A DNA stretch of 60,485 nt, the filler included. It is 4 parts of 4 records of this genome, joined end to end, with 100 filler letters (N's around TTAATTAATTAA, not from the genome) between each part and the next. Parts side by side here need not be neighbours in the genome. Positions count along the whole stretch, not along the records: positions 1 to 16,725 come from SRR2962707_4945; 3 more parts are not named here. One strand, given 5' to 3'. Positions 349-52,337 of the stretch are shown here, in pieces. Made by a program: the position numbers and the translations under genes. The notes below the pieces were generated by a model. That model saw nothing but the letters and a program-made list of their open reading frames with translations. It did no database searches and was not told the origin of the DNA. Every line of letters begins with the position of its first letter. Positions within the stretch are counted from its first letter, which is position 1.

Positions 349-394
349 GGCCGCCACCCTACAGCTCCCCCTATTTCCAACCGGGAAAATTACC

Positions 395-808: not shown

Positions 809-954
809 GATCTTTGGCCAATCAAAGTGCGACATAGCCACAAAACAAGCCCAAGCCGGCAGAAACAGAAAAGCCTGGTCGGCCATTGGAAATGACCGAC
901 CAGGCAACAGTGACATGTGCTGTTTGTATTGTTGGTTGATGAGAGTATCGAGGA

Positions 955-1428: not shown

Positions 1429-1467
1429 GTCGATGGTCCTTTTTCGGTGGTGTTGGAATGGAGGCTG

Positions 1468-2331
1468 TCAGCCAGCAATCTGCGCAACATAGTCACGATA
1501 GGAGCGCAGCGGACGGCCAAGCATTGATGTCAACCTGTCGACGTCGCCAGCATCCGGAAGCATGCCATCGGTCAGGAAACGCTCCGCCATCAAGCGCATG
1601 TCGAATGCCATCCAACTTGGCATAAACTGACGCAAGTTCTGTTCGAACCCGGCGGTATCGTTGCCGGGAAAGGCGATTGCACGACCAAGGACATCGCCCC
1701 AAATCGTGGCGGCATCGTTGCCGGTCAGCGTGTCCGGACCAACGAGATTAATGCGGTTGAGCGGCAACGGGGTTGCTGACTGTTCGCGACGGATCAATTC
1801 GAGTGCGGCAATTTCGCCGACATCACGTGCGTCGATCATCGCAAGGCCCTTCTCGCCAATCGGCATCGGATAGATGCCATAATTGGTAACCACATCCTTG
1901 ATCGTGATCTCGTTATCCATGTAATAGGCCGGGCGCAGAATGGTCGCACCAAGACCCATGTGTTCGATCATCCGCTCTACGCCAAACTTCCCGGCAAAAT
2001 GCGGCACGTTGACGTAGATATCGCTGTGGATTACCGACAGGTATACAATCCGCTCAATCCCGGCCTCACGGGCAAGGTTGAGAGCAATCAGCGCCTGCGT
2101 GTATTCGTCGGCAACAACCCCGTTTAGCAGGAACAGGGTGGAGACGCCCGACATGGCGTGCCGCAGTGAGTCTACGTCAAGCAGATCCCCTTGGACGACT
2201 TCCACGCTGATCGGGAAACTCGCTTTAGACGGATCACGGACCAGCGCACGTACATCGGCACCACGGTTCACAAGTTGTTCGACGACATTACGACCGACAT
2301 TTCCAGTCGCACCGGTGATTAGAATGGTCAT
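1468..2331 (-). CDS. NmrA-like / atypical SDR NAD(P)H-binding protein
   Basis: ILITGATGNVG Rossmann motif, TILRPAYYM, IDARDVG. Confidence 0.9.
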   Translation of the reverse strand: MTILITGATGNVGRNVVEQLVNRGADVRALVRDPSKASFPISVEVVQGDLLDVDSLRHAMSGVSTLFLLNGVVADEYTQALIALNLAREAGIERIVYLSVIHSDIYVNVPHFAGKFGVERMIEHMGLGATILRPAYYMDNEITIKDVVTNYGIYPMPIGEKGLAMIDARDVGEIAALELIRREQSATPLPLNRINLVGPDTLTGNDAATIWGDVLGRAIAFPGNDTAGFEQNLRQFMPSWMAFDMRLMAERFLTDGMLPDAGDVDRLTSMLGRPLRSYRDYVAQIAG

Positions 2332-2417
2332 GGCTTCTCTCCTTGGTTGAGCAATTTGACTGCCCCCAATTTAATGATCCACATTGATGCGAATAGACGC
2401 TATATTTAGACAGATCG

Positions 2418-2430
2418 TCTCACTGGTGGA
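2418..2430. promoter_or_regulatory. Putative LysR T-N11-A box in the divergent nmrA/lysR intergenic region
   Basis: TCTCACTGGTGGA with partial dyad, immediately before the lysR ATG at 2435. Confidence 0.35.
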
Positions 2431-2434
2431 ACAT

Positions 2435-3328
2435 ATGAATCTTCTTGCCCTTGCCGATTTCAATCTGGTTGCCCGCCACGAAGGGTTTGGAAAAGCGTCG
2501 CGCGCCACCGGCCGCCCAAAAGCGACACTGTCGCGACGCGTCGCAGAGCTTGAGGCGAGCCTTGAGCTGCGCTTGTTCGAGCGCGGCGCACGGATACTAA
2601 AGCTGACAGAGGAAGGAAGAGCCCTGTTCGAGCGGACGAGCCAGTTGTTCACCGAACTCGACGAAACAACTGCGGCAATCGCCTCTGGTGGACGCGAACC
2701 GAGGGGACGGCTTCGGATCAGTGCGCCGCTACTGTTTTCGCAGACTGCGATGGGTAAGTTGGCCGCAGACTTTGCCCTTAAGTATCCGAGGGTCCAGCTT
2801 GAAGTCACGACCGAAGATCGGCCCGTCGATATGATCGAGGAAGCCTATGATCTGGTGATAAGGGTCAACCCGGAGCCCGATGAAAGTCTGGTTGGAAGAG
2901 CTTTCCTTCATGACCGACTGGTGATCGTTGCCAGCCCTGATCTGACGCCACCAGTAGACGGCTCCGCCGTTCCGGCTGTCGTGCGGGGCCAAGTCCGCCA
3001 GGACGAAATCTGGAATGTGAAAACGCCGAAGGGCCCATCAAAGATCGTGGTCAACCCGGTGCTGAGCCTGTCGTCACTGGTCATGGTCCGGGATGCCGTA
3101 CGCAAAGGGGTTGGCGCCGGACGACTTCCAGTGTCCCTCGTCGGTCACGATATTGGCGACGGCACGCTGGTGCAGTGGGGCGATGTTGACGGGAATGAAA
3201 TCACCTTGTGGGCGCTCTACCCGTCTCGCCGATTGCTAAGCGCGCGCGTGTCGGCATTCCTCGACTTTTTACGAGAGGCCTTTCCCAAAGGAACACCCGA
3301 TGAGCTCGCGGCCTATGTGGGAAAATAA
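2435..3328 (+). CDS. LysR-family transcriptional regulator (CrgA-like)
   Basis: N-terminal HTH (F..VA..GFGKASRA...KATLSRRVAELE), PRGRLRISAP, substrate-binding domain; divergent from nmrA; start chosen at MNLLAL. Confidence 0.93.
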   Translation: MNLLALADFNLVARHEGFGKASRATGRPKATLSRRVAELEASLELRLFERGARILKLTEEGRALFERTSQLFTELDETTAAIASGGREPRGRLRISAPLLFSQTAMGKLAADFALKYPRVQLEVTTEDRPVDMIEEAYDLVIRVNPEPDESLVGRAFLHDRLVIVASPDLTPPVDGSAVPAVVRGQVRQDEIWNVKTPKGPSKIVVNPVLSLSSLVMVRDAVRKGVGAGRLPVSLVGHDIGDGTLVQWGDVDGNEITLWALYPSRRLLSARVSAFLDFLREAFPKGTPDELAAYVGK

Positions 3329-3331
3329 AGG

Positions 3332-3395
3332 CCATATGGCACGGTGGCGGTATTTGAAGACCTTATATGACAACAAGTGGGATTTTCTTGAGCTC
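3332..3395 (+). pseudogene. Frameshifted remnant of a VOC gene 3' end (direct repeat copy 2)
   Basis: Reads PYGTVAVFEDL, then +1 nt, then YDNKWDFLEL; most differences from copy 1 fall at third codon positions. Confidence 0.8.
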
Positions 3396-3412
3396 GGCAC
3401 ATAAGCCTGTAG

Positions 3413-3787
3413 TTACCCAACCACCTTGTGTCCACGGCCAGCCATACAGTTTCCAATAATCTCTTCACGTTTTTCGATATTTTCGTAGGCGGCTGATCCA
3501 GCGCCAAGAGCTGCACCGATCCCAAGACCGACGAGCAACCCTTCCCAACTATTCGAAATAGCTCCGACGACACCACCCAGCGCGGCACCAATCGTGGCGT
3601 CGGTTTTGGCTTTCCCGCCGAGATATTCACTTTGTTTGGAGAGTCCCCGGCATTCGCCAAGATCGACCTGATATTTTTCATCACGCGGTCCATCAACAAC
3701 AGGTTCGTATTCGCTCCCGGTGCCACTGCACGCAGACAGAACAAGAATGGTAAGCGGGAGAACAAGGCGCAATTGCACACGGATCAT
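3413..3787 (-). CDS. Glycine-zipper lipoprotein
   Basis: Lipobox LSAC; GAALGGVVGA...GIGAALGAG zipper; C-terminal CMAGRGHKV. Confidence 0.8.
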   Translation of the reverse strand: MIRVQLRLVLPLTILVLSACSGTGSEYEPVVDGPRDEKYQVDLGECRGLSKQSEYLGGKAKTDATIGAALGGVVGAISNSWEGLLVGLGIGAALGAGSAAYENIEKREEIIGNCMAGRGHKVVG

Positions 3788-3928
3788 CGCAGTAATCCTG
3801 AAAAAAGGACGGACCGGCGGTTGGATAGAAGCTTGGTAAACCGGCCCGTCAGGTCGGCAAAGCAGGATTGCTCGCCAACACGTTATGGAGACATGAGGGG
3901 TGAGACGATAAAGAAGCTTCCTTAGCCC

Positions 3929-4783
3929 CTAGAAGCTGTAAACAAGACCGATACCGGCACTGAAAACATAATCCTCATCAATGATCGGGCTGTCGGTATA
4001 CTGGTCTGGCAGATACTGGAAACCGTGGGTTCCAATCAGGGTGATTTGCTCCGTCAACGGGTAGGTGACGGTGAAATCGATATATGGAATGAAGGCTGCA
4101 TCTGGCGCATAATATGCCCGGTCGCTACGAACTTCCTTGCGACGAACACCAACCATGTGATCAACAAGTTTATCGCTTTGCCAGGTAACGCCGCCGCCCC
4201 AGCTGAAACTCACGTCCCCCCATTGCTCCGGGACGACATAAGATACATCCACCTGATGACCATCATGGGCGTCGTTAACATCGGTAAGATAGTTGGTAAT
4301 TAACGCACCGCGCCAGATGTTGGCAGAGAAACCAAGACCGGCCTCAAATGCCATGTCCCGTTCTTCCATCCCGCGAAGATAATTGCCATCGCCGTTATCA
4401 AACGGTTCGGTCCGAACTGACCCGATCAGCGACGCGCTAAAGACATCGTTTTTAAAGAACTTGATGTCGATACCATCCACACCGATATGCATGCGTTCAG
4501 AATCATAAGCAGCAATCGGCAGCAGACCAAGCTCAACATCATCAGTCCCGCGATATGGATTATTTGATGCACCACCGAATGCACCAATTTGCCAGCTTCC
4601 GTCGAACCATGGGTCGACGGCACCGCCGGTTTTCGGGTTGACCTGATCGCGGAGAATTTCCTTTGTCGCCTGCTGGGCCTGCGCAGGAGACGCGAACAAC
4701 ATCAGAAGTGCCATAAGACACAACGCCACCCCGACGACCACCATACTGTCACCGGCACGACGCAAAACGTAATTTTCAGACAT
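3929..4783 (-). CDS. mipA: MipA/OmpV family outer-membrane beta-barrel (copy 1)
   Basis: Signal peptide AQA, NPYRG...LP, YLRGM.ERD, YTDSPII, terminal YSF beta-signal. Confidence 0.85.
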   Translation of the reverse strand: MSENYVLRRAGDSMVVVGVALCLMALLMLFASPAQAQQATKEILRDQVNPKTGGAVDPWFDGSWQIGAFGGASNNPYRGTDDVELGLLPIAAYDSERMHIGVDGIDIKFFKNDVFSASLIGSVRTEPFDNGDGNYLRGMEERDMAFEAGLGFSANIWRGALITNYLTDVNDAHDGHQVDVSYVVPEQWGDVSFSWGGGVTWQSDKLVDHMVGVRRKEVRSDRAYYAPDAAFIPYIDFTVTYPLTEQITLIGTHGFQYLPDQYTDSPIIDEDYVFSAGIGLVYSF

Positions 4784-4840
4784 CTATTTAAACACCTTGA
4801 GATTGGAAGGTGTGCAGAAGCTGCCTGATAACGTTTTGTT

Positions 4841-4906
4841 TGGCGACCGGCCCTATATCCTCGAACCGGATATCAATAATCTCAGGGTACGAATGATCAT
4901 TCTCAC
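4841..4906. promoter_or_regulatory. Conserved upstream boxes of mipA copy 1 (candidate AraC operator)
   Basis: TGGCGACCG-N4-TATAT-N2-TCGAAC (4841-4866) and GTACGAATGATCATTCTCAC (4887-4906) align without gaps to 14398-14463. Confidence 0.65.
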
Positions 4907-4921
4907 CGGCTAAGAATTTGA

Positions 4922-6133
4922 TTATTTTGAATTTTCAATGCGATACGCGCTTGGTGTTTTGCCGGTGATTTTTTTAAAGGCCAGATTGAAAGTTGACTTG
5001 GAATTGAAGCCGACACTGGTCGCAATATCGAGAACCGTGCGATCCGGCTCATCAATCAGAAGTATCGACGCCTCTTTGGTGCGGACTTCATTGACGAAAT
5101 CAAAGAAGCTTTTGCCGAGATGCTGATTAAGAACATGGGACAACTGGTTTGGCGTGGCCCCGACCATATTCGCAAGTTTGGGCATCGATAAAAGCGGATC
5201 AAACATCGTATCGGTGCTATCCACAATACGCGTCAGGCGTTCGCGAATACGCACGACGTCATCATCTTCAAGAAGTGATTTCCGCATGTCGGCCACAACA
5301 GGTGAAATCGCGCCCTTCCCAGCTGAGGTAACCGATCCATCTGATTCCTGAGGATCGCTTTCCTGCCATTCGGCTTGAACGAACAAGGCGGGGTTCGATG
5401 CCAAAAGATGACACATCCGGAAAAATACGACGGCAAAACTGCCCTGAACAAGGGTGGTCAGCCATGTTCCATCGTCAACAAAGACGTCGATGACGGACGT
5501 CATGGTGAAAATCAGGAAAATAACGGTAATGCCGATCAGGATCTCAAGCGTCCAGCGCCGCAAGGCCAACTGATCCGCACCAAGCTGTTCACCAGCCTGT
5601 CGCAGATACCCAAGGGCGACTTTCCATATCTTGGGCATATAGGCAAAAAGCTGGACATAAAGCCCGATAAAGACAGTCATCAGGAGAACTGACAGCCAGA
5701 TGTGCTGATCAATGGCAACATCGATTTCGACATCGGTGCCATGAATGATTTCTGGCACGAACTGATCAAACAGAATCCACACCACTCCGGACGTTGCCAC
5801 CAGAACCGGAAGCAGAACCACGAAATGATAGATTGGTCGACGTACCGGCCGGTCTGCAATTTCGCGAAAATACAGATAAATGGACGGCACGAAGGCAAAG
5901 GTCATCGACATGAAAACCGGTGCCATCAACAGCATCCATTTGGGAGTCAGCAAAACGTCGGTGATGTCTTCGATAAAGCTTAGACAGGATGCAAAGGCAA
6001 AGACCATCAGCCAACGGTTGGCGCGAAATGCGCGCTTGCCCTCGTGCCGGAGCAGCAACATCAGAAATCCTGCCTGTGCCAACCCCACAATGGCAATGAT
6101 CATCAGTACAAGTTTGGGGATTTCTGTGGTCAT
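4922..6133 (-). CDS. Membrane-anchored AraC/XylS regulator (multi-TM N-terminus, C-terminal HTH), paralog 1
   Basis: About 6-7 hydrophobic segments; C-terminal FFDFVNEVR...IATSVGFNSKSTFNLAFKKITGKTPSAYR. Confidence 0.9.
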   Translation of the reverse strand: MTTEIPKLVLMIIAIVGLAQAGFLMLLLRHEGKRAFRANRWLMVFAFASCLSFIEDITDVLLTPKWMLLMAPVFMSMTFAFVPSIYLYFREIADRPVRRPIYHFVVLLPVLVATSGVVWILFDQFVPEIIHGTDVEIDVAIDQHIWLSVLLMTVFIGLYVQLFAYMPKIWKVALGYLRQAGEQLGADQLALRRWTLEILIGITVIFLIFTMTSVIDVFVDDGTWLTTLVQGSFAVVFFRMCHLLASNPALFVQAEWQESDPQESDGSVTSAGKGAISPVVADMRKSLLEDDDVVRIRERLTRIVDSTDTMFDPLLSMPKLANMVGATPNQLSHVLNQHLGKSFFDFVNEVRTKEASILLIDEPDRTVLDIATSVGFNSKSTFNLAFKKITGKTPSAYRIENSK

Positions 6134-6164
6134 TCTGCTATGTCCGGTTTGGATATCACAAATC

Positions 6165-7379
6165 TTAGTTTCCGCTCGGAGTGATTGGCGTCAACCCGAA
6201 GCGTGTAGACAGATCCAGACCATCCGGTTTGGTGATGGCCTGGGTGCGATAGTGACTGGGTGTCATACCGGTAACGCGCTTGAAAGCAAGGTTGAATGTC
6301 GATTTGGAGTTAAAGCCTACCTCCATTGCGATATCAATGATCGTGCGGTCGTGCTCGGCGCATAACAGCCCTGCCGCCCTGTGAACACGCACGCTATTGA
6401 CGAATTCAAAGAAGGATTGGCCCAACACATTGTTCAGCGTATGGGATAACTGATTGGGGGTAACACCGATCCGGGTGGCAAGTTTGGGCATCGTCAAAAG
6501 CGGATCAAACAATGTTTGTCCGTCGCCGGCAACCTGCTCCAGCCGTTTGCAAATCTGCGCGGTCTGATACTCATCCATCACCGAACGACGTTCCGGGCGC
6601 AGATCATTTATCCCCGTTTGTTCATGGGCGTTCCCTGTCCGGAAAGGCTGACTTGCCAGCAGGAAATTCAGACGCAGCAGAACAAGCACAAATCCAAGAT
6701 TGACCAGCATATTTGACCAGTGCATGTCGCGTGACACCATCTGCAACAACTGTGACAGGACAAATGCCACCAGTGCAGAGTGCAGACACAAAACCACGCC
6801 ACGTACCCATCGACGCCGCAGCAGACTGTCGTGATCGCCCTTGGCCTTGAGCATTTTTGTATATCGATGCGCCACCCGACTAAGAGCAATGTGATAAACT
6901 GACACAAAAACAAACAGCCCAACAAGCAACCCGGTCGCCACCAGGCTGAGGTCAAAATCCGTATCAAAGGTGATGTGCAGCGGGTCACCGCCAAACAGCC
7001 GGTCACCGTAACGAATGAAAACCATCACCATCATTGCCGCCACGGCACAACAGGCCAAAGGTACCGCCAGCATATGGAGCCAGGGCCTATCTGGTAGATC
7101 CCCCGACATTTCCCGAAAATAGAGATACACCGCAGGGGCAAGCGCAAAATAGGCGCTGAAAAGAAGCGGTTCGAGCAAAAGCGCCACCGCAGTACCACCC
7201 AGCAGCAGAACAATGTCGCGGGCAAATGACATCGACAATGCCAACAGGAAAATACCCATCCAGCGGTTCACGTGCCAGGCACTTGTTCCTTCATTACGCA
7301 GAACCAGCAGCAAAAGGCCCGCCTGGACCATCCCGGTCACAGAGATCATGAATGACAGGATATCGATGGTCTCAAACAT
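6165..7379 (-). CDS. Membrane-anchored AraC/XylS regulator, paralog 2
   Basis: Same architecture; IAMEVGFNSKSTFNLAFKRVTGMTPSHYR. Confidence 0.9.
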   Translation of the reverse strand: MFETIDILSFMISVTGMVQAGLLLLVLRNEGTSAWHVNRWMGIFLLALSMSFARDIVLLLGGTAVALLLEPLLFSAYFALAPAVYLYFREMSGDLPDRPWLHMLAVPLACCAVAAMMVMVFIRYGDRLFGGDPLHITFDTDFDLSLVATGLLVGLFVFVSVYHIALSRVAHRYTKMLKAKGDHDSLLRRRWVRGVVLCLHSALVAFVLSQLLQMVSRDMHWSNMLVNLGFVLVLLRLNFLLASQPFRTGNAHEQTGINDLRPERRSVMDEYQTAQICKRLEQVAGDGQTLFDPLLTMPKLATRIGVTPNQLSHTLNNVLGQSFFEFVNSVRVHRAAGLLCAEHDRTIIDIAMEVGFNSKSTFNLAFKRVTGMTPSHYRTQAITKPDGLDLSTRFGLTPITPSGN

Positions 7380-7821
7380 GTTGGGTCATGCCGCTCAGAG
7401 GTTGGTTTTCTGTACGCAGTAACCCGTACCGCGTAAAATCATGTTTCTCAACGCTTAAGTGACCGCCTTGCGCTTTGGTGCCCGATTCGCAAGATTGAAG
7501 TCCCCTCAAAGCCTTGAATGTGAAGTATTTCACATCAAAAATACAACTTTTCCGGGTTACATCACATTTCCCTGAATATCGAATGGTGACCTGATATCCA
7601 AATTGTCACCCGTGTCGTGCATGTTTAGATTATCAGTCAACTCACGCAGTTTACGCAAATTTCCGCTATGAAATGGACAATATTGCGCAAAATTCCACCA
7701 TTTGTTTCATCAATGTGAAATCACGACTTGCAGTTGACGCATGGCAGCCTCAGTATTTTTGCGTACGTACTTTCAGGGAGTACGTCACAACAAATCAAAA
7801 TTGTTGAGGGAGACATTTCAC

Positions 7822-9456
7822 ATGTCACAAAATGCGATGACCACAAAGGGTCTCGTGAGCGGACTGATAAAGTCGTCACGGGCCTTTGTGCTGGGGACCG
7901 CCTTGATTGCCGGGTCGATGACCATGTTGTCCTCCACCCACGCGCAAGCCGAAAAGATTCTGCGGGTCGGGAATGATGGCGAACCACAATCCATGGACCC
8001 ACATTTCATCTCGACCGTTCAGACCAGCCGTGTTTCCGATGATATGTCACTGGGTCTTCTGACATATGGCCCGGATGGGCAGCCGGTCCCCGGAGCGGCC
8101 GAAAGCTGGACCGTTTCAGACGACGGGATGACATATACCTTTAAAATCCGCGATCATAACTGGTCAGATGGCACTCCGGTCACCGCACAGGACTTCATCG
8201 CAGGGTGGCAACGCCTTCTTGATCCGGCACTGGGTGCTGAATATGCGTCGCTTTTGTACATCATTGAAGGTGCCGAAGACGTCAACACCGGCAAAGATGG
8301 CGCGAAACTCGCGGCAACTGCCGTTGACGACCATACCCTTAAGGTCAAACTGACGGCACCAGCCCCTTATTTTCTGGCACAATTGACCCATCAGACCGCC
8401 TTTGCCATTCCCCGTCATACGGTGGAAAAATATGGCAAGGACTGGGTAAAGCCGGAAAACATCGTCGTGAATGGCCCTTACAAACTGGTTGAATGGGTTC
8501 CGAACGTTCATACCAAACTGGTCAAAAACGAAGAATTTTATGACGCCAAGAACGTTCCGATCGACGAGGTCATTTATTACGCCTACGAAGATCGCACCGC
8601 GATGCAAAACCGGTTCCGCGCCAATGAACTTGACGTCGCACGTGACATCGCATCCGAACAAATTTCCTGGTTGCGTGACAATCTGAGCGACAGCCTGCGC
8701 ATCGCGCCCTATGCGGGCATTTATTATTACGCGATCCGAACCGACAAAGAAAAGTTCGCCGATCCACGCGTGCGCAAGGCACTTTCGCTTGCCATCAACC
8801 GCGAAGCCATCACCGATGCGGTTCTGAAAACCGGTGAACTTCCGGCATATTCCTTCGTGCCACCGGGAACGGGCAACTATACCGAACCGGCCTATGTTTC
8901 ATGGAAAGACCTGCCCTATGGCGAGAAGGTCGCAGAAGCCAAGAAACTGATGGCAGAGGCAGGCTATGGGCCGGACAATCCATTGAAATTCACCCTGCGC
9001 TACAACACGTCGGAAAACCACAAACGCATCGCGATTGCGGCGCAAAACATGTGGAAACAGATCGGTGTCGAAGCGGACCTGTTTAACACCGAAGGCAAAA
9101 TCCATTATGCCGACCTGAAAGTTGGTGATTTCGAAGTCGCCCGCGCAGGCTGGATTGCCGATTACAACGATGCACAGAACTTCCTGTTCCTTGGTGAAGA
9201 ACGCACCGGCCCGCTGAATTATGCCGCGTTCGATAACCCACGCTATAACGAACTCATGCTGGACGCCGAAAACGAAGGCGACCTGAAAAAGCGTGCAGAC
9301 CTGATGCATCAGGCCGAAGCCATCATGATGGAGGCCCAGCCCTACATCCCGATTTACTACTATGTCTCGAAACAGCTTGTATCGCCAAAGATCAAGGGCT
9401 GGATCGATAATGCCCCGGATCGTCACCTGACCCGCTGGCTCGACATCGCCGAGTAA
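7822..9456 (+). CDS. oppA: Oligopeptide ABC transporter substrate-binding protein
   Basis: Signal peptide, EPQSMDP, GAAESWTVSDDG.TYTFKIR, NGPYKL, RAGWIADY; GAGGGAG RBS before ATG 7822. Confidence 0.95.
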   Translation: MSQNAMTTKGLVSGLIKSSRAFVLGTALIAGSMTMLSSTHAQAEKILRVGNDGEPQSMDPHFISTVQTSRVSDDMSLGLLTYGPDGQPVPGAAESWTVSDDGMTYTFKIRDHNWSDGTPVTAQDFIAGWQRLLDPALGAEYASLLYIIEGAEDVNTGKDGAKLAATAVDDHTLKVKLTAPAPYFLAQLTHQTAFAIPRHTVEKYGKDWVKPENIVVNGPYKLVEWVPNVHTKLVKNEEFYDAKNVPIDEVIYYAYEDRTAMQNRFRANELDVARDIASEQISWLRDNLSDSLRIAPYAGIYYYAIRTDKEKFADPRVRKALSLAINREAITDAVLKTGELPAYSFVPPGTGNYTEPAYVSWKDLPYGEKVAEAKKLMAEAGYGPDNPLKFTLRYNTSENHKRIAIAAQNMWKQIGVEADLFNTEGKIHYADLKVGDFEVARAGWIADYNDAQNFLFLGEERTGPLNYAAFDNPRYNELMLDAENEGDLKKRADLMHQAEAIMMEAQPYIPIYYYVSKQLVSPKIKGWIDNAPDRHLTRWLDIAE

Positions 9457-9469
9457 ATTTCGCCTTGGT

Positions 9470-9511
9470 ATCGCAGGCTTTGAAGGCGTCCTCCCGCCCA
9501 AGGCCTGCGAT
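9470..9511 (+). other. Intercistronic stem-loop between oppA and oppB
   Basis: ATCGCAGG...CCTGCGAT inverted repeat with no U-tract; typical mRNA-stabilising or attenuating hairpin. Confidence 0.45.
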
Positions 9512-9537
9512 CACCCCGACGGGGATGAGAGAGAAAT

Positions 9538-10461
9538 ATGTTATCTTACGCCATTCGGCGCCTGCTGATAGCGATCCCGACACTGTTCATCGTGATCACA
9601 GTGGCCTTTTTCATGATGCGTATTGCACCGGGCGGCCCGTTCGATCAGGAACGCGCACTTCCGCCCGAAATCGAAAAGAATATCAAGGCGGCCTATGACC
9701 TTGATAAACCGCTGATCGAACAATACGGCATCTATATCGGCAAGCTTTTGCAGGGTGACTTTGGCCCTTCGATCAAGATCCGCGACTTTTCCGTTGCTGA
9801 ACTGATCATGGCCGGCGCGCCTGCATCCATGCAGCTTGGATTAAGTGCAATTGCCCTGGCCCTTGTATTCGGGATCGGGTTTGGCACCTATGCCGCCCTT
9901 CGACAAAACAGTGCGGTTGATTTTGCCGTGATGGGAATTGCCATGATCGGCATCGCCATCCCGAACTTTGTCATGGCGCCGTTGCTGTCGCTTGTTTTTG
10001 GATTGTATCTTGCGATCCTGCCGACCGCAGGGTGGGGAGACGGCGAAATCCAGTACAAGATTTTGCCGATCATTGCCCTTGCCCTGCCCCAGATTGCCTA
10101 TATCGCGCGCCTGACGCGCGGATCCATGGTCGAAGTGCTGCATTCCAATTATATCCGCACGGCACGCGCCAAGGGACTGCGCGAAAAGTTGGTGGTGAAC
10201 CGTCATGCGATCAAGGGCGCGCTTTTGCCAGTGATTTCCTATCTTGGCCCCGCGACCGCGGCAGTGATGACCGGCTCGGTTGTGATTGAAAGCATCTTTG
10301 GTGTGCCCGGTATTGGCACCTATTTCATCAAGGCCGCATTAAATCGCGACTATCCGTTGGTGATGGGGGTGGTGATTGTCTATGCGGTGATGATCATCAT
10401 GCTGAATTTCCTGGTCGACATGGTTTACGGCCTTCTTGATCCCAAACTGAAGTCACCCTGA
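9538..10461 (+). CDS. oppB: Oligopeptide ABC transporter permease
   Basis: RIAPGGPFDQER, EAA-type YIRTARAKGL, NRDYPLV. Confidence 0.96.
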   Translation: MLSYAIRRLLIAIPTLFIVITVAFFMMRIAPGGPFDQERALPPEIEKNIKAAYDLDKPLIEQYGIYIGKLLQGDFGPSIKIRDFSVAELIMAGAPASMQLGLSAIALALVFGIGFGTYAALRQNSAVDFAVMGIAMIGIAIPNFVMAPLLSLVFGLYLAILPTAGWGDGEIQYKILPIIALALPQIAYIARLTRGSMVEVLHSNYIRTARAKGLREKLVVNRHAIKGALLPVISYLGPATAAVMTGSVVIESIFGVPGIGTYFIKAALNRDYPLVMGVVIVYAVMIIMLNFLVDMVYGLLDPKLKSP

Positions 10462-11369
10462 TGATGAATAAATCCGAAAAAACAGCACTGCTGCAATCCG
10501 CAGGTGCGACCAAGGAAATCGAAGGGCGCAGCCTGTGGCGTGATGCCCGCATCCGCCTGTTTCGCAACAAGGCCGCTGTCGGGTCGATGATCATTCTGGG
10601 GATTATCACCCTGCTTGCGATCATTGCGCCGCTTTTGAGCCCATATGCCTATGACCAGATCGACTGGGGATATATTCAGGAAGGTCCGAACTGGGAAAAC
10701 GGCCATATTTTTGGCACCGATGGCAATGGACGCGATCTGTTTGTCCGTGTGCTGTATGGCGCGCGCGTGTCATTGGCCGTCGGGCTTCTGGCAACAGCCG
10801 TGTCGCTGATCATTGGGGTGACATATGGGGCCATCGCCGGATATTTCGGCGGCAAGATCGACAGCATCATGATGCGGTTTGTCGATGTGCTGTATTCCCT
10901 GCCCTTCATGTTTTTTGTCATCATGTTGATGGTGGTGTTTGGCCGAAACATCTTTTTGATTTTTGTCGCCCTCGGCGCGGTTGAATGGTTGACCATGGCG
11001 CGCATTGTCCGGGGGCAGACACTTTCGCTGCGGCGGCGTGAATTCATTGAGGCCGCCCATGCCACGGGTGTTTCGAACTTCAAAATCATTTTCCGCCATG
11101 TGATCCCCAACGTTCTGGGGCCGGTGATTGTCTATATGACACTGACCATTCCCCAAGTGATCCTGACGGAAAGTTTCCTGTCGTTCCTTGGACTCGGTGT
11201 GCAGGAGCCCCTGACCAGTTGGGGTGTTCTGATTTCCGAAGGCGCAAAAGTGATCGAAGCATCGACCTGGATGCTGATTTATCCGGCGGTGTTCCTGGCA
11301 CTGACACTGTTCTGTTTCAATTTCATCGGCGATGGCCTGCGCGATGCGCTGGACCCGAAAGACAGATAG
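10461..11369 (+). CDS. oppC: Oligopeptide ABC transporter permease
   Basis: FGTDGNGRDL, EFIEAA, ESFLSFLGLG, GDGLRDALDPK. Confidence 0.96.
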   Translation: MMNKSEKTALLQSAGATKEIEGRSLWRDARIRLFRNKAAVGSMIILGIITLLAIIAPLLSPYAYDQIDWGYIQEGPNWENGHIFGTDGNGRDLFVRVLYGARVSLAVGLLATAVSLIIGVTYGAIAGYFGGKIDSIMMRFVDVLYSLPFMFFVIMLMVVFGRNIFLIFVALGAVEWLTMARIVRGQTLSLRRREFIEAAHATGVSNFKIIFRHVIPNVLGPVIVYMTLTIPQVILTESFLSFLGLGVQEPLTSWGVLISEGAKVIEASTWMLIYPAVFLALTLFCFNFIGDGLRDALDPKDR

Positions 11370-11388
11370 GACAGGAAGGAAACACATC

Positions 11389-12363
11389 ATGACAACCAAC
11401 CATATTCTGACTGTCGAAAACCTTTCTACGCGGTTTCAAACCCCGGACGGTGAAGTTGAGGCGGTCAACAACGTCAATTTCCACATTGATCCGGGCGAAA
11501 CGCTTGGCGTTGTCGGGGAATCGGGATCGGGCAAAACCCAGATTTTCCTGTCCCTGATGGGGCTTTTGGCCAAGAACGGCACATCAACCGGATCGGTTCG
11601 CTACAAGGATAAGGAAATCCTCAATCTGCGGTCCCGCGACTTGAACAAAATCCGCGGTGTCTCGATGTCGATGATCTTTCAGGACCCGATGACATCGCTC
11701 AACCCGTTTTTGAAAATCTCCCGACAAATGACAGAGGTTCTTGTTGAACATCGCGGCATGTCCGAGGCAGATGCCCTAAACCGTGCCGTTGCGATGCTTG
11801 ACCGTGTTGGCATCCCCGGTGCGGCCCAGCGTGTTCACATGTATCCCCATGAATTTTCCGGTGGCATGCGGCAACGCGTGATGATTGCCATGGCGCTTTT
11901 GTGTGATCCGGAAGTTCTGATTGCCGATGAGCCGACCACCGCCCTTGATGTCACGGTACAGGCACAGATCCTTGATCTGTTGCGCGATCTGCAAAAGGAC
12001 TTCAACACCGCCACGGTCATGATCACCCACGATCTGGGTGTGGTGGCTGGCCTGTGTGATCGGGTGATGGTGATGTATGGCGGGCGGGTTGTTGAAACCG
12101 GTACCGTGCGCGACATTTTCTATGACAGTCATCACCCCTATACCGAGGGACTGTTGAAATCGATGCCGCGCATTGATCGCGCCAATGAAGACAGCATGTT
12201 CGCCATTCCCGGCCAGCCGCCCAATCTTCAGAACCTGCCGACTGGTTGTGCCTATCAGGAACGGTGTGGCTATGTCATTGATCGATGCTGTGTGGAACGC
12301 CCGTTGCTCAAAGGTTTTGGGGATGGCCGGGCCAGCGCATGTTTCCGGGAGGACGGGCAATGA
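11389..12363 (+). CDS. oppD: Oligopeptide ABC transporter ATPase
   Basis: GESGSGKT, FSGGMRQR, ADEPTTALD, C-terminal Cys motif. Confidence 0.95.
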   Translation: MTTNHILTVENLSTRFQTPDGEVEAVNNVNFHIDPGETLGVVGESGSGKTQIFLSLMGLLAKNGTSTGSVRYKDKEILNLRSRDLNKIRGVSMSMIFQDPMTSLNPFLKISRQMTEVLVEHRGMSEADALNRAVAMLDRVGIPGAAQRVHMYPHEFSGGMRQRVMIAMALLCDPEVLIADEPTTALDVTVQAQILDLLRDLQKDFNTATVMITHDLGVVAGLCDRVMVMYGGRVVETGTVRDIFYDSHHPYTEGLLKSMPRIDRANEDSMFAIPGQPPNLQNLPTGCAYQERCGYVIDRCCVERPLLKGFGDGRASACFREDGQ

Positions 12364-13373
12364 CGGTCATGACAGCACCAGACAAACGCGACAACGCCCC
12401 GATCCTGTCAGTTCGCGATCTTAAGGTTCATTTCCCGATACCCGGCAAAGGCCTGTTCGCCAAGGACCGCCCGCTTAAGGCTGTCGACGGGGTGAATTTT
12501 GACCTGTTTCCGGGTGAAACGCTGGGCGTGGTTGGGGAATCGGGCTGCGGCAAATCGACACTGGGCCGGGCGATTTTGCAATTGATTGCCCCGTCGGGCG
12601 GACAGGTCGCATGGCTTGGCAAAAACATTGTTGGCATTCCGCACCGCGATATGCAGCCCCTGCGCCGTGATTTTCAGATCATTTTTCAGGATCCGCTGGC
12701 CTGTCTTAATCCGCGCATGACGATCGGCGAAATCATTGCCGAGCCGCTGGTCACCCACAAACCCAAATTGGGCAAGGATGAAATCAAGACACGCGTCAAA
12801 CGCATGATGGCGCGCGTTGGCCTTTTGCCGCAAATGATCAACCGTTATCCGCATGAATTTTCCGGTGGCCAATGCCAGCGTATCGGCATTGCACGCGCAA
12901 TGATCCTTGAACCCAAACTGATTGTTTGTGATGAACCGGTTTCCGCCCTTGATGTGTCGATCCAGGCGCAGATCGTCAATCTGTTGCAGGAATTGCAGCG
13001 CGAATTTGACCTGTCGCTGATTTTCATCAGCCATGATTTGTCAATTGTGCGCCATATCTGTCACCGCATTATGGTGCTGTATCTTGGCAATGTGATGGAG
13101 CTTGCGGATCGTGACAGCATCTATGCCGCGCCAAGACACCCCTATACCAAGGCGCTGATTTCAGCCGTACCAATCCCCGACCCAGAGATTGAACGCAACA
13201 AGGAACGCATTGTCCTGACCGGCGATTTGCCAAGTCCGCTGTCGCCGCCATCAGGATGTGTGTTTCGAACGCGTTGCCCGTTTGCACAGGAAAAATGCGC
13301 AACGGACGTGCCGAAAATTGATCGTGTTTCGGAAACTCAGGAGGTCGCCTGTCATTTCCACGACAGCATTTGA
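12360..13373 (+). CDS. oppF: Oligopeptide ABC transporter ATPase
   Basis: GESGCGKS, FSGGQCQR, CDEPVSALD, PSGCVFRTRC; ATGA overlap with oppD. Confidence 0.95.
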   Translation: MTVMTAPDKRDNAPILSVRDLKVHFPIPGKGLFAKDRPLKAVDGVNFDLFPGETLGVVGESGCGKSTLGRAILQLIAPSGGQVAWLGKNIVGIPHRDMQPLRRDFQIIFQDPLACLNPRMTIGEIIAEPLVTHKPKLGKDEIKTRVKRMMARVGLLPQMINRYPHEFSGGQCQRIGIARAMILEPKLIVCDEPVSALDVSIQAQIVNLLQELQREFDLSLIFISHDLSIVRHICHRIMVLYLGNVMELADRDSIYAAPRHPYTKALISAVPIPDPEIERNKERIVLTGDLPSPLSPPSGCVFRTRCPFAQEKCATDVPKIDRVSETQEVACHFHDSI

Positions 13374-13407
13374 ATAACAAGCCGACCACAATTGCACCCT
13401 GAAACTT

Positions 13408-13439
13408 AACGGACCGTCTTGCGACGGTCCGTTTTTTTT
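13408..13439 (+). terminator. Rho-independent terminator of the opp operon
   Basis: AACGGACCGTC-TTGC-GACGGTCCGTT followed by a T-run. Confidence 0.9.
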
Positions 13440-13488
13440 GTGCAGATTGCCCGTTTGATCATCCCGATCTGATGTCCATTCTGGAAAA

Positions 13489-14340
13489 TCAGAACGTATA
13501 GACAAGCCCAAGACCGGCACTGAGAACGTAATCATCATCAATGATCGGGCTGTCGGTATATTCATCTGACAGATAGATGAACCCGCCGGTGCCAATGATA
13601 TTGAGGCTTTCGGTCAGCGGATAGGCGACGGTCACATCAAGATGCGGCAGGAAGGTTGCATCCGGAGCATAGTATGCCCGGTCGCTGCGGACTTCAGCGC
13701 GCGAAACACCCGTTCCATAATCAACCAGGTTTTCGCTTTGCCACGTAACACCGGCACCCCACTCAAAGTTGACATCCCCTAATTGCAACGGCACGAAATA
13801 GGATACATCAACTTCATGACCGTTATGGGTATCGGCAACATCGGTAAGATAGCTTCCAATCAGTTCGCCGCGCCATAACCGCGTGCTAAAGCCAATACCA
13901 ACATCATATCCCATGTCGGTATCCTTCATTCCTCTCAGGTAGTTGCTATCACCTGACTCAAATGGTCCATCACGGAAGCCACCGATCACGGACAGACTGG
14001 CAAAATCATTTTGCCAGGCTTTGATGTCAATCCCGTCGATCCCGATATGCATCCGCTCCGCATCATATGCAAGAAGTGGAAGCCCGCCTAAATCGGTACT
14101 GTCCGCTCCGCGATAAGGATTGCTTTCTATTTGTCCAAATGCACCAAATTGCCAGTCCCCGCCAAGCCACGGGTCCTCGCTGTCGGCATTTGGGTTAACC
14201 TGTTCACGCAGAATTTCTCTTCTGCCTTGTTGGGCATGAACCGGACCGGCAATCATCAAAATGATCGCCATCGTACAAAGCCCCAGACCGGTAAGAAGCA
14301 TGATATCACCGGAGCGGCGTAAAACGTGATTGAAAGACAT
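13489..14340 (-). CDS. mipA: MipA/OmpV family outer-membrane beta-barrel (copy 2)
   Basis: Clear paralog of 3929-4783 (EILREQVNP, NPYRG, EVRSDRAYYAPDA, YTDSPII, YTF); start set at MSFNHVLRR by alignment with copy 1. Confidence 0.85.
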   Translation of the reverse strand: MSFNHVLRRSGDIMLLTGLGLCTMAIILMIAGPVHAQQGRREILREQVNPNADSEDPWLGGDWQFGAFGQIESNPYRGADSTDLGGLPLLAYDAERMHIGIDGIDIKAWQNDFASLSVIGGFRDGPFESGDSNYLRGMKDTDMGYDVGIGFSTRLWRGELIGSYLTDVADTHNGHEVDVSYFVPLQLGDVNFEWGAGVTWQSENLVDYGTGVSRAEVRSDRAYYAPDATFLPHLDVTVAYPLTESLNIIGTGGFIYLSDEYTDSPIIDDDYVLSAGLGLVYTF

Positions 14341-14397
14341 GTATCGGAACACCCTGAAATTGGTTGATGCGCCGACACTGCCCCGAAGCCCCGAACC

Positions 14398-14463
14398 TGG
14401 CGTCCGTTGTTATATGGTCGTACGCATCAGGCGCCCACGGATGGTACGAATGCGCATTCGTAC
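14398..14463. promoter_or_regulatory. Conserved upstream boxes of mipA copy 2, including a perfect 20-bp palindrome
   Basis: TGGCGTCCG-N4-TATAT-N2-TCGTAC (14398-14423); GTACGAATGCGCATTCGTAC (14444-14463). Confidence 0.7.
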
Positions 14464-14466
14464 GCC

Positions 14467-15684
14467 TTAGTCGTTTGGTTTATCAACGTTTTCATGACGA
14501 TACTTACTTGGCGTCAATCCCGTGATCGTCTTGAATGCAAGGTTGAAAGTCGATTTCGAATTGAAGCCAACACTGGTCGCAATATCGAGGACAGTACGTT
14601 CCGATTCGCTGACCAGAAGGCGCTCTGCCTCATTAATCCGAACTTCATTGACGAAATCGAAGAAATTTTTGTCCAGATGCTTATTCAGCACGAAAGAAAG
14701 TTGATTGGGAGTTACCCCCACCGCCGCAGCCAGTTTTGGCATGGTCAGAAGCGGGTCGAACATCACATTGCGGCTTGCAACGATTTTCTCAAGCCGGTTT
14801 CGAATGCGCATGACATTGTCCTCATCGACAATCATGCGCAGCATCCGTGCCTGTTCACCGCCATCATCCCGGCCCGTATCTGGCGGTGTCGCGGCATCAC
14901 CGGGCACACCTTCCGCACCGGTTTCCGTTTGGACAAACAGCGCAGGGTTCTGCGCAATCACCTGACACATACGGAAAAACACAAGAACGAACGCCGCCTT
15001 TACGCCAAGCGACAGCCACTCGGCCTGCGAAACAAAAAGATCAAACAACTGGGTCACGGTGAAAACGGTAAACAGTATCGTCATCCCAACAAGAAGTTCT
15101 ATCACCCAGCGACGCAGCCGTTCGCTGTCAACCTGAAGCTGCCAGTCCGCCTGTCGCAGGTAACGCCGGGCCCGTCGCCAGATGCCCGTCATGTAAACCG
15201 CAAACAGCGTGCAAAACAGGATGACGATCGCAAGCAGCACCATATCTGCCAAACCACTCGACGAGAACGTAATCTGCAAGCCGACATCACGCACATGTCC
15301 CTCATCGGCGATCATACGCGAACGCTTGAAATAGATCATAAGCCCGATTGCTGCAGCTACGGGCACCAGGACAAGGAAATGCCGATATGGCCGTGATGCC
15401 GGGTCGCCGGAAATTTCGCGGAAATACAGGTAGATTGACGGAATGAAGGCAAAAAAGAACGGCGCAAAAACCGGCACAAGATACAGGTTAACAAGCGGAC
15501 TGATGATCGGATCGAACGTATCATCGACAAAACTCATACCGACCGAAAACCCAAACACCATCAGCCAGCGATTGGCCTTAAACGCCCGTTTTCCTTCATC
15601 CATCAGCAGGACAATCAGGAAAATCGCCTGAGCGGCTCCAAGCACCGAAACGATCAGAAAAAGAATATCGAGTGTTTCAAACAT
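14467..15684 (-). CDS. Membrane-anchored AraC/XylS regulator, paralog 3
   Basis: MFETLDIL start matches paralog 2 (alternative start 15699); EGKRAFKANRWL as in paralog 1; C-terminal AraC HTH. Confidence 0.9.
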   Translation of the reverse strand: MFETLDILFLIVSVLGAAQAIFLIVLLMDEGKRAFKANRWLMVFGFSVGMSFVDDTFDPIISPLVNLYLVPVFAPFFFAFIPSIYLYFREISGDPASRPYRHFLVLVPVAAAIGLMIYFKRSRMIADEGHVRDVGLQITFSSSGLADMVLLAIVILFCTLFAVYMTGIWRRARRYLRQADWQLQVDSERLRRWVIELLVGMTILFTVFTVTQLFDLFVSQAEWLSLGVKAAFVLVFFRMCQVIAQNPALFVQTETGAEGVPGDAATPPDTGRDDGGEQARMLRMIVDEDNVMRIRNRLEKIVASRNVMFDPLLTMPKLAAAVGVTPNQLSFVLNKHLDKNFFDFVNEVRINEAERLLVSESERTVLDIATSVGFNSKSTFNLAFKTITGLTPSKYRHENVDKPND

Positions 15685-15863
15685 CCTTACGTCCGTCATG
15701 GCGGTTCGGTATTCTAGCGTCTGAACCCAATTGAATATGCGTCGGACCAAGCAGAACGCTGGCCCCTGAAACGAACGCACCGGTCAGGAATACGTCAGTG
15801 TGCGCCGTGCGACAACAAACATTTGCAAGACATTTGCCGCTGTCACATCCCGAAACAGTCCCG

Positions 15864-16724
15864 TTACGATGACAGAAACTGACTGACATCCACTTCGTCG
15901 CACTGATCGGGGCGCAGGTATTTTTTACCGTAAACAAGGTAGGTGCCACTGACCAGAAACAGCTCGAACAGGTCATTGTCGATCTGCCCCTTGTCGCGCA
16001 TATCGCCAAGGATCGAAATGCATTCAGATAAAAGTTTGGGCCGTTTATACGGGCGATCAACCGCGGTGAGTGCTTCGAAAATGTCGGCAATCACCATGAC
16101 CTTTTCAAGGATGCCCATGTCATCGCCGGTCATGCCGTGCGGATACCCTGATCCATCCATTTTTTCATGGTGATTGCCCGCAATAGCAGGAATACGTTGC
16201 AGTTCGCGCGGATAGGGCAATTGGGCAAGCATATCCTGCGTTACGACAACGTGATCATTGATCACCTGTCGTTCTTCGGATGTCAGGGTGCCGTGCGGGA
16301 TCGACAGATTATAAAGCTCCCCACGGTTAAAGCCGAGATACACCTGATCTTCGCGGTCCATCAGCAAGGTTTCTGTGCCCGCTTCGCGTAGGCTTACCAG
16401 ATCCGCATCGGTCAGCCGTTGATTTTCCGACCACGACAGCCCCACCGTTCGATCAAAATGGCGCACCCATGTCAGTTCGGCAATATCGTGCAGGGCATAG
16501 ATGGTGTCGGTATCAAGTTCCGTATCGCCAATATTGGCATCGGCGACCATCGAAAACTGATTTTCCAGCTCGGCAACCTTTTGCTTGAAATCGGCATCGC
16601 AGGCATCGGCGTCTTCGCCCGCCAGTTTGCGTTTAAGCATATCGATTTCGGCATCCCGGCGCAGGACTTCAAACCGGGTGCGGATTTCGTGAATACGGTT
16701 ATGGATGGTTTCAAGCTTGGTCGC
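15864..16724 (-). CDS. HD-GYP domain phosphohydrolase, C-terminal part (truncated at contig end)
   Basis: ATKLETIHNRIHEIR, GTLTSEER, HHEKMDGSGYP, IADIFEALT..DRPYK. Confidence 0.9.
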   Translation of the reverse strand, partial: ATKLETIHNRIHEIRTRFEVLRRDAEIDMLKRKLAGEDADACDADFKQKVAELENQFSMVADANIGDTELDTDTIYALHDIAELTWVRHFDRTVGLSWSENQRLTDADLVSLREAGTETLLMDREDQVYLGFNRGELYNLSIPHGTLTSEERQVINDHVVVTQDMLAQLPYPRELQRIPAIAGNHHEKMDGSGYPHGMTGDDMGILEKVMVIADIFEALTAVDRPYKRPKLLSECISILGDMRDKGQIDNDLFELFLVSGTYLVYGKKYLRPDQCDEVDVSQFLSS

Positions 16725-16725
16725 C

Positions 16726-16825
16726 NNNNNNNNNNNNNNNNNNNNNNNNNNNNNNNNNNNNNNNNNNNNTTAATTAATTAANNNNNNNNNNNNNNNNNNN
16801 NNNNNNNNNNNNNNNNNNNNNNNNN
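16726..16825. other. Artificial contig spacer
   Basis: 44 N + TTAATTAATTAA (stops in all six frames) + 44 N. Confidence 0.99.
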
Positions 16826-35226: not shown

Positions 35227-35326
35227 NNNNNNNNNNNNNNNNNNNNNNNNNNNNNNNNNNNNNNNNNNNNTTAATTAATTAANNNNNNNNNNNNNNNNNN
35301 NNNNNNNNNNNNNNNNNNNNNNNNNN
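35227..35326. other. Artificial contig spacer
   Basis: 44 N + TTAATTAATTAA + 44 N. Confidence 0.99.
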
Positions 35327-45120: not shown

Positions 45121-45220
45121 NNNNNNNNNNNNNNNNNNNNNNNNNNNNNNNNNNNNNNNNNNNNTTAATTAATTAANNNNNNNNNNNNNNNNNNNNNNNN
45201 NNNNNNNNNNNNNNNNNNNN
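45121..45220. other. Artificial contig spacer
   Basis: 44 N + TTAATTAATTAA + 44 N. Confidence 0.99.
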
Positions 45221-52331: not shown

Positions 52332-52337
52332 ATATTT

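Follow-up and report, generated by a model that had tools for sequence, protein, structure and literature searches.

Membrane-embedded AraC-type regulators directly upstream of MipA/OmpV barrel genes in Thalassospira: a candidate one-component system with a conserved operator-like site

Outer-membrane barrels of the MipA/OmpV family were recently proposed to act as polymyxin co-sensors that work through two-component systems. In Pseudomonas aeruginosa, polymyxins are bound by MipA, which ParRS requires for its full output, according to the accessible text of one study (PMC10936184), while that of another reports that in Vibrio cholerae ompV is co-transcribed with carRS and needed for induction of vexAB (PMC12012098). 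According to the former, mipA has a two-component system next to it "in most cases" (PMC10936184); its main text makes no mention of AraC. The subject of the present report is a DNA stretch of 60,485 nucleotides (hereafter, the window), in whose Thalassospira part two mipA genes each lie directly downstream of a gene for a predicted seven-helix membrane protein that ends in an AraC-type helix-turn-helix (HTH) domain. What this arrangement has in common with MipA-MipB/ParRS and carRS-ompV-virK, as the accessible parts of the two papers portray them (PMC10936184, PMC12012098), is a MipA/OmpV barrel that stands beside, and in the window would be controlled by, an envelope-stress signalling system. 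ParRS and CarRS, however, each consist of a histidine kinase and a response regulator, whereas the window has a one-component AraC protein with seven transmembrane (TM) helices; moreover, the window module contains no homologue of MipB or VirK. Thalassospira, a non-pathogenic marine bacterium, may also offer a simpler system, with one protein, one promoter and one output, for studying how an outer-membrane barrel and an inner-membrane sensor communicate.

AraC-type proteins with membrane helices have been described before. In Saccharophagus degradans, HTH_AraC proteins with six or seven TM helices were reported in 2008 to lie beside presumed target genes and to have undergone paralog expansion; their neighbours were cellulases, and extracellular polysaccharide was the proposed signal (PMC2386152). 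Transmembrane transcription regulators have also been counted across prokaryotes, 27% of them with three or more TM regions (PMC10269533). The window proteins resemble both sets in that a DNA-binding domain is fused to membrane helices; they differ in having no extracytoplasmic domain, and the accessible portions of the two papers give counts and neighbours only, with neither a cis-element nor a MipA partner. BcrR of Enterococcus faecalis and HigX of Caulobacter, in the accessible part of a further report, are membrane-embedded one-component regulators of envelope genes (PMC13384398). They too are multi-pass membrane proteins with a cytoplasmic HTH that regulate from the membrane, but their DNA-binding families and helix numbers are different. 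BcrR directly senses a membrane-active peptide antibiotic. With the classical AraC/XylS proteins (AraC, XylS, RhaS and MarA), the window regulators have in common a two-HTH domain and repeated half-sites near the target promoter; the N-terminal ligand-binding and dimerisation domain of the classical proteins is replaced in the window by a seven-helix bundle that has no Pfam model and no sequence relative in the PDB. Outside supplements, which may list AraC neighbours, we found nothing in the literature on the pairing of a TM-AraC with MipA, on the function of seven-helix AraC proteins or on their operator. Thus, the membrane-bound AraC architecture is already catalogued, while the MipA pairing and the operator were not found in print. 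To our knowledge, the multi-pass AraC regulators have not been characterised functionally as a family.

An initial annotation of the window had described three paralogous TM-AraC regulators and two MipA paralogs, all on the minus strand. Open reading frames (ORFs) and Pfam searches (cut-offs 33.6 bits for HTH_18, 26.6 for HTH_AraC and 24.2 for PF06629) placed these genes where they had been put or close by, in the order araC_A, araC_B, mipA1, lipoprotein gene in one group and truncated GAF-HD_5 gene, araC_C, mipA2 in the other:

6165 to 7379, minus strand: araC_A, a 404-residue seven-TM/AraC-HTH regulator (HTH_18 84.5 bits), first of a tandem pair and divergent from an Opp-like ABC operon
4922 to 6133, minus strand: araC_B, a 403-residue seven-TM/AraC-HTH regulator (HTH_18 77 bits), directly upstream of mipA1
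3929 to 4783, minus strand: mipA1, a 284-residue outer-membrane barrel of the MipA/OmpV family (PF06629 135.6 bits)
14467 to 15684, minus strand: araC_C, a 405-residue seven-TM/AraC-HTH regulator (HTH_18 75.1 bits), directly upstream of mipA2
13489 to 14352, minus strand: mipA2, a barrel of the MipA/OmpV family (PF06629 135.5 bits), with a likelier start at the ATG at 14340

We consider it probable that a membrane-embedded one-component regulator acts here on the promoter immediately downstream and replaces the two-component system usual beside mipA. Gene content, predicted topology, recurrent adjacency, and the conservation and uniqueness of a site were observed; that the protein binds DNA, which way it controls mipA and what it senses are inferred. 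The unit would thus do the job of the two-component system found beside mipA or ompV in Pseudomonas, Vibrio and many other bacteria.

The three regulators share the C-terminal two-HTH domain of the AraC/XylS family (HTH_AraC 35-41 bits), and their recognition region, noted earlier as near-identical, contains GFNSKSTFNLAFK exactly in AraC_A, AraC_B and AraC_C. Over the full length, AraC_B is 49% identical to AraC_C and 36% to AraC_A, which sits on a long branch of the family tree. Pairwise identities are 43, 29 and 31% in the TM domains versus 73, 59 and 58% in the HTH domains, which agrees with the earlier view that the sensors have diverged more than the HTHs; the linker between the two is only 12-24% identical. 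The ORF of araC_C is open up to 15780, and a start at M33 of that ORF is favoured by the alignment.

Where six or seven helices had been proposed, hydropathy gave seven TM segments, and the positive-inside rule puts the N-terminus outside and the C-terminus, with the HTH, inside. An AlphaFold model of AraC_B (mean predicted local distance difference test, pLDDT, 77.9) likewise has seven long helices, followed by a disordered linker (residues 252-286, pLDDT below 50) and an AraC-type HTH domain. By this predicted topology, the proteins have the make-up of transmembrane transcription regulators, with DNA-binding domain and TM helices in one polypeptide and the HTH in the cytoplasm. In a single Foldseek run of the whole AraC_B protein, the top matches were AraC DNA-binding domains (6swi, E 9e-5; also 3oou and 2k9s); class A G-protein-coupled receptors appeared from rank 13 onward, with E values of 0.007-0.016, query TM-scores of 0.31-0.40 and root-mean-square deviations of 6-9 Å for most and 6-19 Å over all those listed, the level of generic helix bundles. 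A PDB sequence search with a TM-domain profile gave no match at E 10 or better, and the N-terminal halves of the three window regulators matched no Pfam family at E 0.01 or below, 7TMR-DISM, HisKA_7TM and 5TMR-LYT included. HisKA_7TM was found in one of 68 scanned relatives (E 0.006). The nearest Protein Atlas clusters are unnamed and have no Pfam family.

Residue conservation in a 71-sequence alignment bears on where a signal could enter. The periplasmic loops of AraC_B comprise 5, 19 and 8 residues and are the least conserved part (0.23 versus 0.41 for TM helices and cytoplasmic loops). All 71 sequences have Y88, Y165 and W194, while H103 and Q20 are each kept in 70; apart from Q20, these residues sit on the cytoplasmic side. 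The initial annotation had tied the AraC protein to a cognate barrel and had it sense a periplasmic or membrane ligand. The tie is borne out by adjacency, MipA clade and site, as described below; a periplasmic ligand site is not supported by these sequences, and since the periplasmic loops are short and variable and the invariant residues lie on the cytoplasmic side, sensing within the membrane or at its inner face appears to be favoured. A complex predicted between the TM domains of AraC_A and AraC_B scored 0.46 (best control, 0.00), with runs agreeing in at least 88% of contacts and partner pLDDT values of at least 76. Of 78 solved complexes, 51 attain the mark used, as do 2 of 108 mismatched pairs, and scores of 0.60 or lower include only 5 of those 78 complexes and all four passing mismatches; the prediction is rated as weak support and was not counted as evidence.

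A genome-wide count of TM-AraC genes next to mipA, the check suggested at the outset, showed the adjacency to recur, also beyond Thalassospira. A TM-AraC gene lies immediately upstream of mipA at 5 of 7 loci from five genomes, one of Novispirillum itersonii and four of Thalassospira. Scanning metagenomes with the MipA subfamily yielded 20 loci, two of them cut at a contig end; in 14 of the 18 assessable loci, a TM-AraC gene directly precedes mipA. Outside the genus, the pair occurs in Novispirillum and in the alphaproteobacterium G363, which makes three lineages in all, and its surroundings are of at least four kinds: divergent from an ABC operon, beside a GAF-HD gene, divergent from a PadR-RND (resistance-nodulation-division) pump, and the Novispirillum context. 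Some single mipA genes are preceded by two araC genes (L122) or three (L124-L127), recurrent arrays that fit the earlier proposal of divergent sensors on one operator.

Tandem arrays of membrane AraC genes were also seen at L011, L063 and L077 and, more broadly, in Thalassospira-like metagenome contigs, Flavobacterium and other Bacteroidota. In addition, a 576-residue library ORF (P0126) fuses MipA, the TM domain (with about the first 66 profile positions missing) and the HTH; the fusion may be a gene-call artefact, but it still shows a mipA beside a distant TM-AraC.

In a sample of 401 alphaproteobacterial genomes, 76 had a match to the MipA subfamily (a tally that includes the unpublished G276), and the best 30 loci were inspected. 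Histidine-kinase or response-regulator genes adjoin 6 of the 29 other best MipA loci. The AraC-linked MipAs form one clade (support 100/99), separate from the MipAs linked to kinases or response regulators. Two loci without an adjacent araC (L083 and L084) are nested inside this clade, which points to a loss of araC there. The pairing of TM-AraC with mipA is therefore not due to chance, and because the adjacency recurs, involves one MipA clade and comes with a conserved operator-like site between the genes, these sequences support a functional tie between the regulator and the adjacent mipA. With one MipA clade wired to a membrane AraC, the module of a barrel plus a signalling unit would be more general than its kinase partner.

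The initial annotation had also called the locus a duplicated module. The paralogy holds; a recent duplication in this genome does not. In the araC tree, AraC_B is nearest to L081 and AraC_C to L003, and closer relatives of the window regulators exist in other Thalassospira (69 and 74% identity) than in the window paralog. Recent co-duplication of araC-mipA modules is thus ruled out by the trees, and the two groups represent old paralogous lineages.

Both spacers between araC and mipA carry an operator-like element, composed of a palindrome near the araC stop codon and a second box closer to mipA:

4891 to 4902, minus strand: palindrome GAATGATCATTC, candidate operator of the mipA1 promoter, 19 nucleotides after the araC_B stop, its position conserved in relatives
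4842 to 4849, minus strand: box 2, CGGTCGCC, 41 nucleotides downstream of the palindrome and 58 before the mipA1 start
14444 to 14463, minus strand: perfect 20-bp palindrome GTACGAATGCGCATTCGTAC, with core GAATGCGCATTC at 14448-14459, 7 nucleotides after the araC_C stop
14399 to 14424, minus strand: middle site CGTACG at 14419-14424 and box 2, CGGACGCC, at 14399-14406
6136 to 6146, minus strand: single half-site AACCGGACAT in the 31-nucleotide spacer between araC_A and araC_B, weak, with 5 of 6 core matches

The palindrome arms, CATTCGTAC or CATTCGGAC, and box 2 have the core CG(G/T)AC in common. At mipA2, the right arm, the middle site and box 2 are spaced by 24 and 18 nucleotides, and nowhere in the window are strict sites clustered more densely than in the 150-nucleotide bin at this spacer, which has five. 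With at most one mismatch, GAATGNNCATTC occurs only twice in the 60,485 bases, both times in araC-mipA spacers. A shuffle control led us to expect about three such matches in the window, so that the count alone is uninformative and it is the placement that informs: by our own arithmetic, the chance that both matches fall within the 252 nucleotides of these spacers is about 2 in 100,000. The window scan found no palindrome before araC_A, araC_C or the ABC operon. As a separate observation, CGTACGTAC at 7762-7770, in the spacer between araC_A and the ABC operon, forms a palindromic pair of family-type cores and is a single weak candidate.

The arrangement is conserved among relatives. Seven Thalassospira mipA promoters retain GAATGNNCATTC and, after 41-42 nucleotides, CGGACGCC; the L008/L009 lineage has 30-31 nucleotides between palindrome and box 2. 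The site begins between 3 nucleotides before and 30 after the araC stop in Thalassospira, and 67 after it in Novispirillum. The composite was found exactly once per genome in G032, G033 and G035, each time before mipA, and was absent from G036, G034 and the reversed-pattern controls.

The same half-site appears in the wider family. A TM-domain profile searched against 1.84 billion proteins, of which representatives of 50%-identity clusters were retrieved, gave 830 representatives at E 0.001 or below, with nearly all listed matches 370-430 residues long. HTH_18 was present in 62 of 68 scanned relatives, with no convincing Pfam family on the membrane part, and four or more TM segments were predicted in 69 of the 70 loci with an N-terminal part of at least 150 residues (80 loci were kept from 594 genomic relatives). 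The architecture is thus widespread. For 58 TM-AraC genes that do not belong to the Thalassospira clade (from Bacteroidota, Leptospira, roseobacters, Photobacterium and other lineages), words were counted in the 150 nucleotides that follow the stop codon. The most enriched 6-mer was CGGACG, found in 16 of the 58 loci versus none of 53 control and 2 of 59 upstream stretches; CG[GT]ACG had 37 sites in 17 loci versus 0 and 2 in the control and upstream sets. Often two or three copies occur, 18-22 nucleotides apart (Hyphobacterium, Photobacterium, Chitinophaga, roseobacters and others; L012-L080). From these counts, the family seems to have one half-site in common, placed at the start of the next gene, in keeping with the shared recognition helix. 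A half-site just past the stop codon would provide a testable rule for predicting the targets of this widespread family.

The genes downstream of 46 TM-AraC genes of other lineages included nine for outer-membrane proteins, seven for acyl-CoA dehydrogenases or acyl-CoA synthetases, four for DJ-1/PfpI proteins, four for peptidases, two for lipase- or esterase-like proteins and several for membrane proteins. One of the nine outer-membrane protein genes, downstream of a Paremcibacter TM-AraC, codes for an OMP_b-brl barrel; in the araC tree, Paremcibacter, G363 and Novispirillum belong to the sister group of the Thalassospira regulators. The frequency of envelope and lipid functions fits a membrane-borne signal but is no proof of it. 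Apart from this, a 711-residue library ORF (P0190) fuses the TM domain and HTH to a Ser/Thr protein kinase.

Several observations weigh against a membrane-bound regulator that acts on the adjacent barrel gene. At L083 and L084, mipA has no araC next to it and a GAF-HD gene stands there instead, and 4 of the 18 assessable metagenome loci (L128, L129, L131 and L134) also lack araC. Among the 30 best alphaproteobacterial MipA loci, a TM-AraC gene lies upstream in only two, those of Thalassospira and G363, which shows a pairing confined to particular lineages. Within Thalassospira, moreover, the araC tree and the mipA tree disagree. If the adjacency were an accident of synteny in particular lineages and had no regulatory meaning, a pairing limited to a few alphaproteobacterial lineages is what one would see. 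Such an accident is very improbable given that the same pair recurs in so many surroundings and in three lineages, that P0126 joins MipA, TM domain and HTH in one ORF, and that the conserved spacer element is unique in each genome that has it.

The site itself raises further difficulties. The palindrome is kept without an adjacent araC at L083, L128, L129 and L131, where either a paralog in trans or another protein would bind it. Classic AraC/XylS sites usually consist of two direct repeats of some 17-20 bp, and a short palindrome is not of that type. Box 2 could lie at or after the transcription start, a position that suggests repression rather than activation, and the strict family half-site was found in only 17-19 of the 58 loci from other lineages. 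The palindrome might thus belong to a different regulator, with the TM-AraC proteins controlling the ABC operon, RND pumps or their own genes and merely travelling with mipA. Its persistence without a neighbouring araC and its form, unusual for AraC proteins, speak for this, as do Thalassospira paralogs that are divergent from PadR-RND pumps or lie upstream of PEMT or LemA genes. We regard it as distinctly unlikely, however, because the palindrome arms and box 2 contain the very half-site that is enriched past the ends of TM-AraC genes in phyla that are unrelated and whose downstream genes are unrelated too, because the site starts between 3 nucleotides before and 30 after the araC stop in Thalassospira and 67 after it in Novispirillum, and because neither araC_A, araC_C nor the ABC operon is preceded by a palindrome. 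Where a genome has the palindrome but no araC beside it, paralogs are still present in it (G035). In keeping with a decay of the operator, the palindrome has two mismatches at L084 (T. lucentensis HF2), where the adjacent araC is gone, and searches of that genome found one full-length relative, of the L006 type, and one HTH-only match.

The Thalassospira TM-AraC paralogs at L005, L006, L007, L009 and L011 are divergent from a PadR-RND efflux operon, and PEMT-like genes, LemA/DUF3137 genes, mipA or a second araC lie downstream of them.

The last difficulty concerns the linker. In Novispirillum itersonii (L010, 7968-9226), the araC before mipA is split, with the TM and HTH parts in different frames and the break in a linker rich in Pro and Ala; a frameshift, a sequencing error or a gene that is genuinely split would each explain this. 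A break at that very point counts against a regulator that works as one piece and suits a different mechanism, in which the TM domain is mainly a device for anchoring or sequestration, and cleavage of the linker or release from the membrane frees a soluble HTH fragment to act on mipA. The linker is also disordered in the AraC_B model and poorly conserved among the window proteins, and some library representatives of 243-309 residues span the TM domain without an HTH (HTH_18 was missing from 6 of the 68 scanned), although these may be cut-off ORFs. A mere anchor, on the other hand, would have no need of the conserved polar and aromatic residues (Q20, Y88, H103, Y165 and W194), nor of TM helices as conserved as the cytoplasmic loops; the TM-HTH fusion is retained in 62 of the 68 relatives, and no protease gene accompanies the module in the window or at the relative loci scanned. 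Release of a fragment is accordingly an unlikely mechanism.

A regulator that remains tethered and acts on the next promoter would work as follows. The protein, in which a disordered stretch of about 35 residues links the seven-helix membrane domain to the AraC-type two-HTH domain in the cytoplasm, would stay in the inner membrane and bind repeated CG(G/T)AC(G) half-sites that start a few bases past its own stop codon; the target in Thalassospira would be the palindrome, 41-42 nucleotides and CGGACGCC. From there, it would control transcription of the next gene, mipA. The input would most likely be sensed in the membrane or at its inner face, as a lipid state, amphipathic or cationic compounds, or a perturbation of the envelope, and the output would be an acidic outer-membrane barrel of the MipA/OmpV type. 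Divergent sensors, two or three of them, that share one recognition helix could converge on mipA promoters, and multi-input control through tandem or triple arrays and a shared operator is plausible.

As to direction, the sequence features suggest that a membrane signal probably makes the regulator switch mipA on. We favour activation over repression, since most AraC-family members are activators, the sites precede the start codon by 43-68 nucleotides plus the element's own length, and no sigma-70-like promoter was called in either araC-mipA spacer, which fits a dependence on an activator. Feedback from MipA to the regulator is suggested only by analogy with MipA-ParRS and OmpV-CarRS.

A more far-reaching version, which we hold doubtful, would make the N-terminal domain a large, as yet unnamed family of seven-helix receptors that read the state of the membrane (lipids, amphiphiles or cationic peptides) while tethered and act only in cis, on the promoter starting at their own stop codon, through CG(G/T)ACG; in Thalassospira, two or three such receptors in an array would converge on one acidic MipA, which would capture the ligand at the outer membrane and modulate them in turn. 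If true, this would amount to a trans-envelope circuit that senses peptides or lipids without a kinase.

The barrels bear the marks of the MipA/OmpV family. MipA1 and MipA2 are 62% identical; their N-terminal hydrophobic segments, in MipA1 a signal peptide, end in AQA and AQQ, and their C-termini are YSF and YTF, respectively. Scores against NF045789, the NCBIfam equivalog of Vibrio OmpV, were 106 and 110 bits, well below its cut-off of 400, and the two are family members, not OmpV orthologues. The last 225 residues carry a net charge of -20 in MipA1 and -24 in MipA2, a composition that is, by analogy, in line with a role as scaffold for MltA or as polymyxin co-sensor. P. aeruginosa MipA and V. 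cholerae OmpV have an electronegative lumen, as described in the accessible text (PMC10936184, PMC12012098); because the window barrels are strongly acidic in a like manner, a cationic or amphipathic ligand is plausible, again by analogy.

Downstream of mipA1 lie two further features:

3808 to 3850, minus strand: terminator-like hairpin with an 11-bp stem and U6, between mipA1 and the lipoprotein gene (-25 kcal/mol, z -2.95)
3413 to 3787, minus strand: 124-residue lipoprotein with the lipobox LSAC and a glycine-rich segment

The initial annotation had taken the latter for a glycine-zipper lipoprotein. Its lipobox stands; the glycine-zipper assignment is not supported, as Gly-zipper_YMGG (PF13441) scores 19.6 bits, under the cut-off of 28.9. 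Among the loci examined, homologues (37.5% identity) were found only in two roseobacter loci, L040 (8596-8955) and L044 (8545-8904), where they lie directly downstream of a TM-AraC and precede an NmrA-like gene, which Pfam identified only in L040. The lipoprotein is ruled out as a fixed member of the module, since no other Thalassospira locus has a homologue. An NmrA-like gene also lies near the module in the window, at 1468-2331.

The window itself is composite. Three spacers of the form N44-TTAATTAATTAA-N44 (16726-16825, 35227-35326 and 45121-45220) join four blocks, whose G+C contents are 53.1, 63.1, 52.5 and 41.6%; the modules are confined to block 1 (1-16725). Block 1 is Thalassospira, since a protein listed at its source as Thalassospira lohafexi matches AraC_B with 100% identity. 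That blocks 2 and 4 were acquired by horizontal transfer was considered and is ruled out, the joints being spacers with stop codons that were artificially set between contigs; more than one organism is probably present in the assembly. Block 4 (45221-60485) is 99% identical to genome G001, which matches no other block. None of the 31 genomes in the relatives set around G001 has the TM domain, and the genus of G001 thus lacks these regulators.

The remaining features of block 1 are the following:

7741 to 13373, plus strand: Opp-like peptide ABC operon (SBP_bac_5, two permeases and two ATPases), between the two modules, context only
13408 to 13433, no strand assigned: strong hairpin between the convergent ABC operon and mipA2 (z -3.37), with a T-run on the plus strand and an A-run on the other side
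15864 to 16724, minus strand: 3' part of a GAF-HD_5 gene (HD_5 114 bits), upstream of araC_C and cut by the contig joint

The ABC operon is nearest to OppA (E 1e-121, below the cut-off), and an Opp-like ABC operon also neighbours L003, L083, L084, L115-L117, L119 and L120. The GAF-HD_5 fragment shares 86% identity with the L084 protein over residues 298-583 of the latter. Genes for GAF-HD_5 proteins regularly neighbour the AraC-linked mipA clade, in the window and at L081-L084, L116, L128, L130 and L134, with or without araC in between, and often adjoin a gene for adenylosuccinate lyase.

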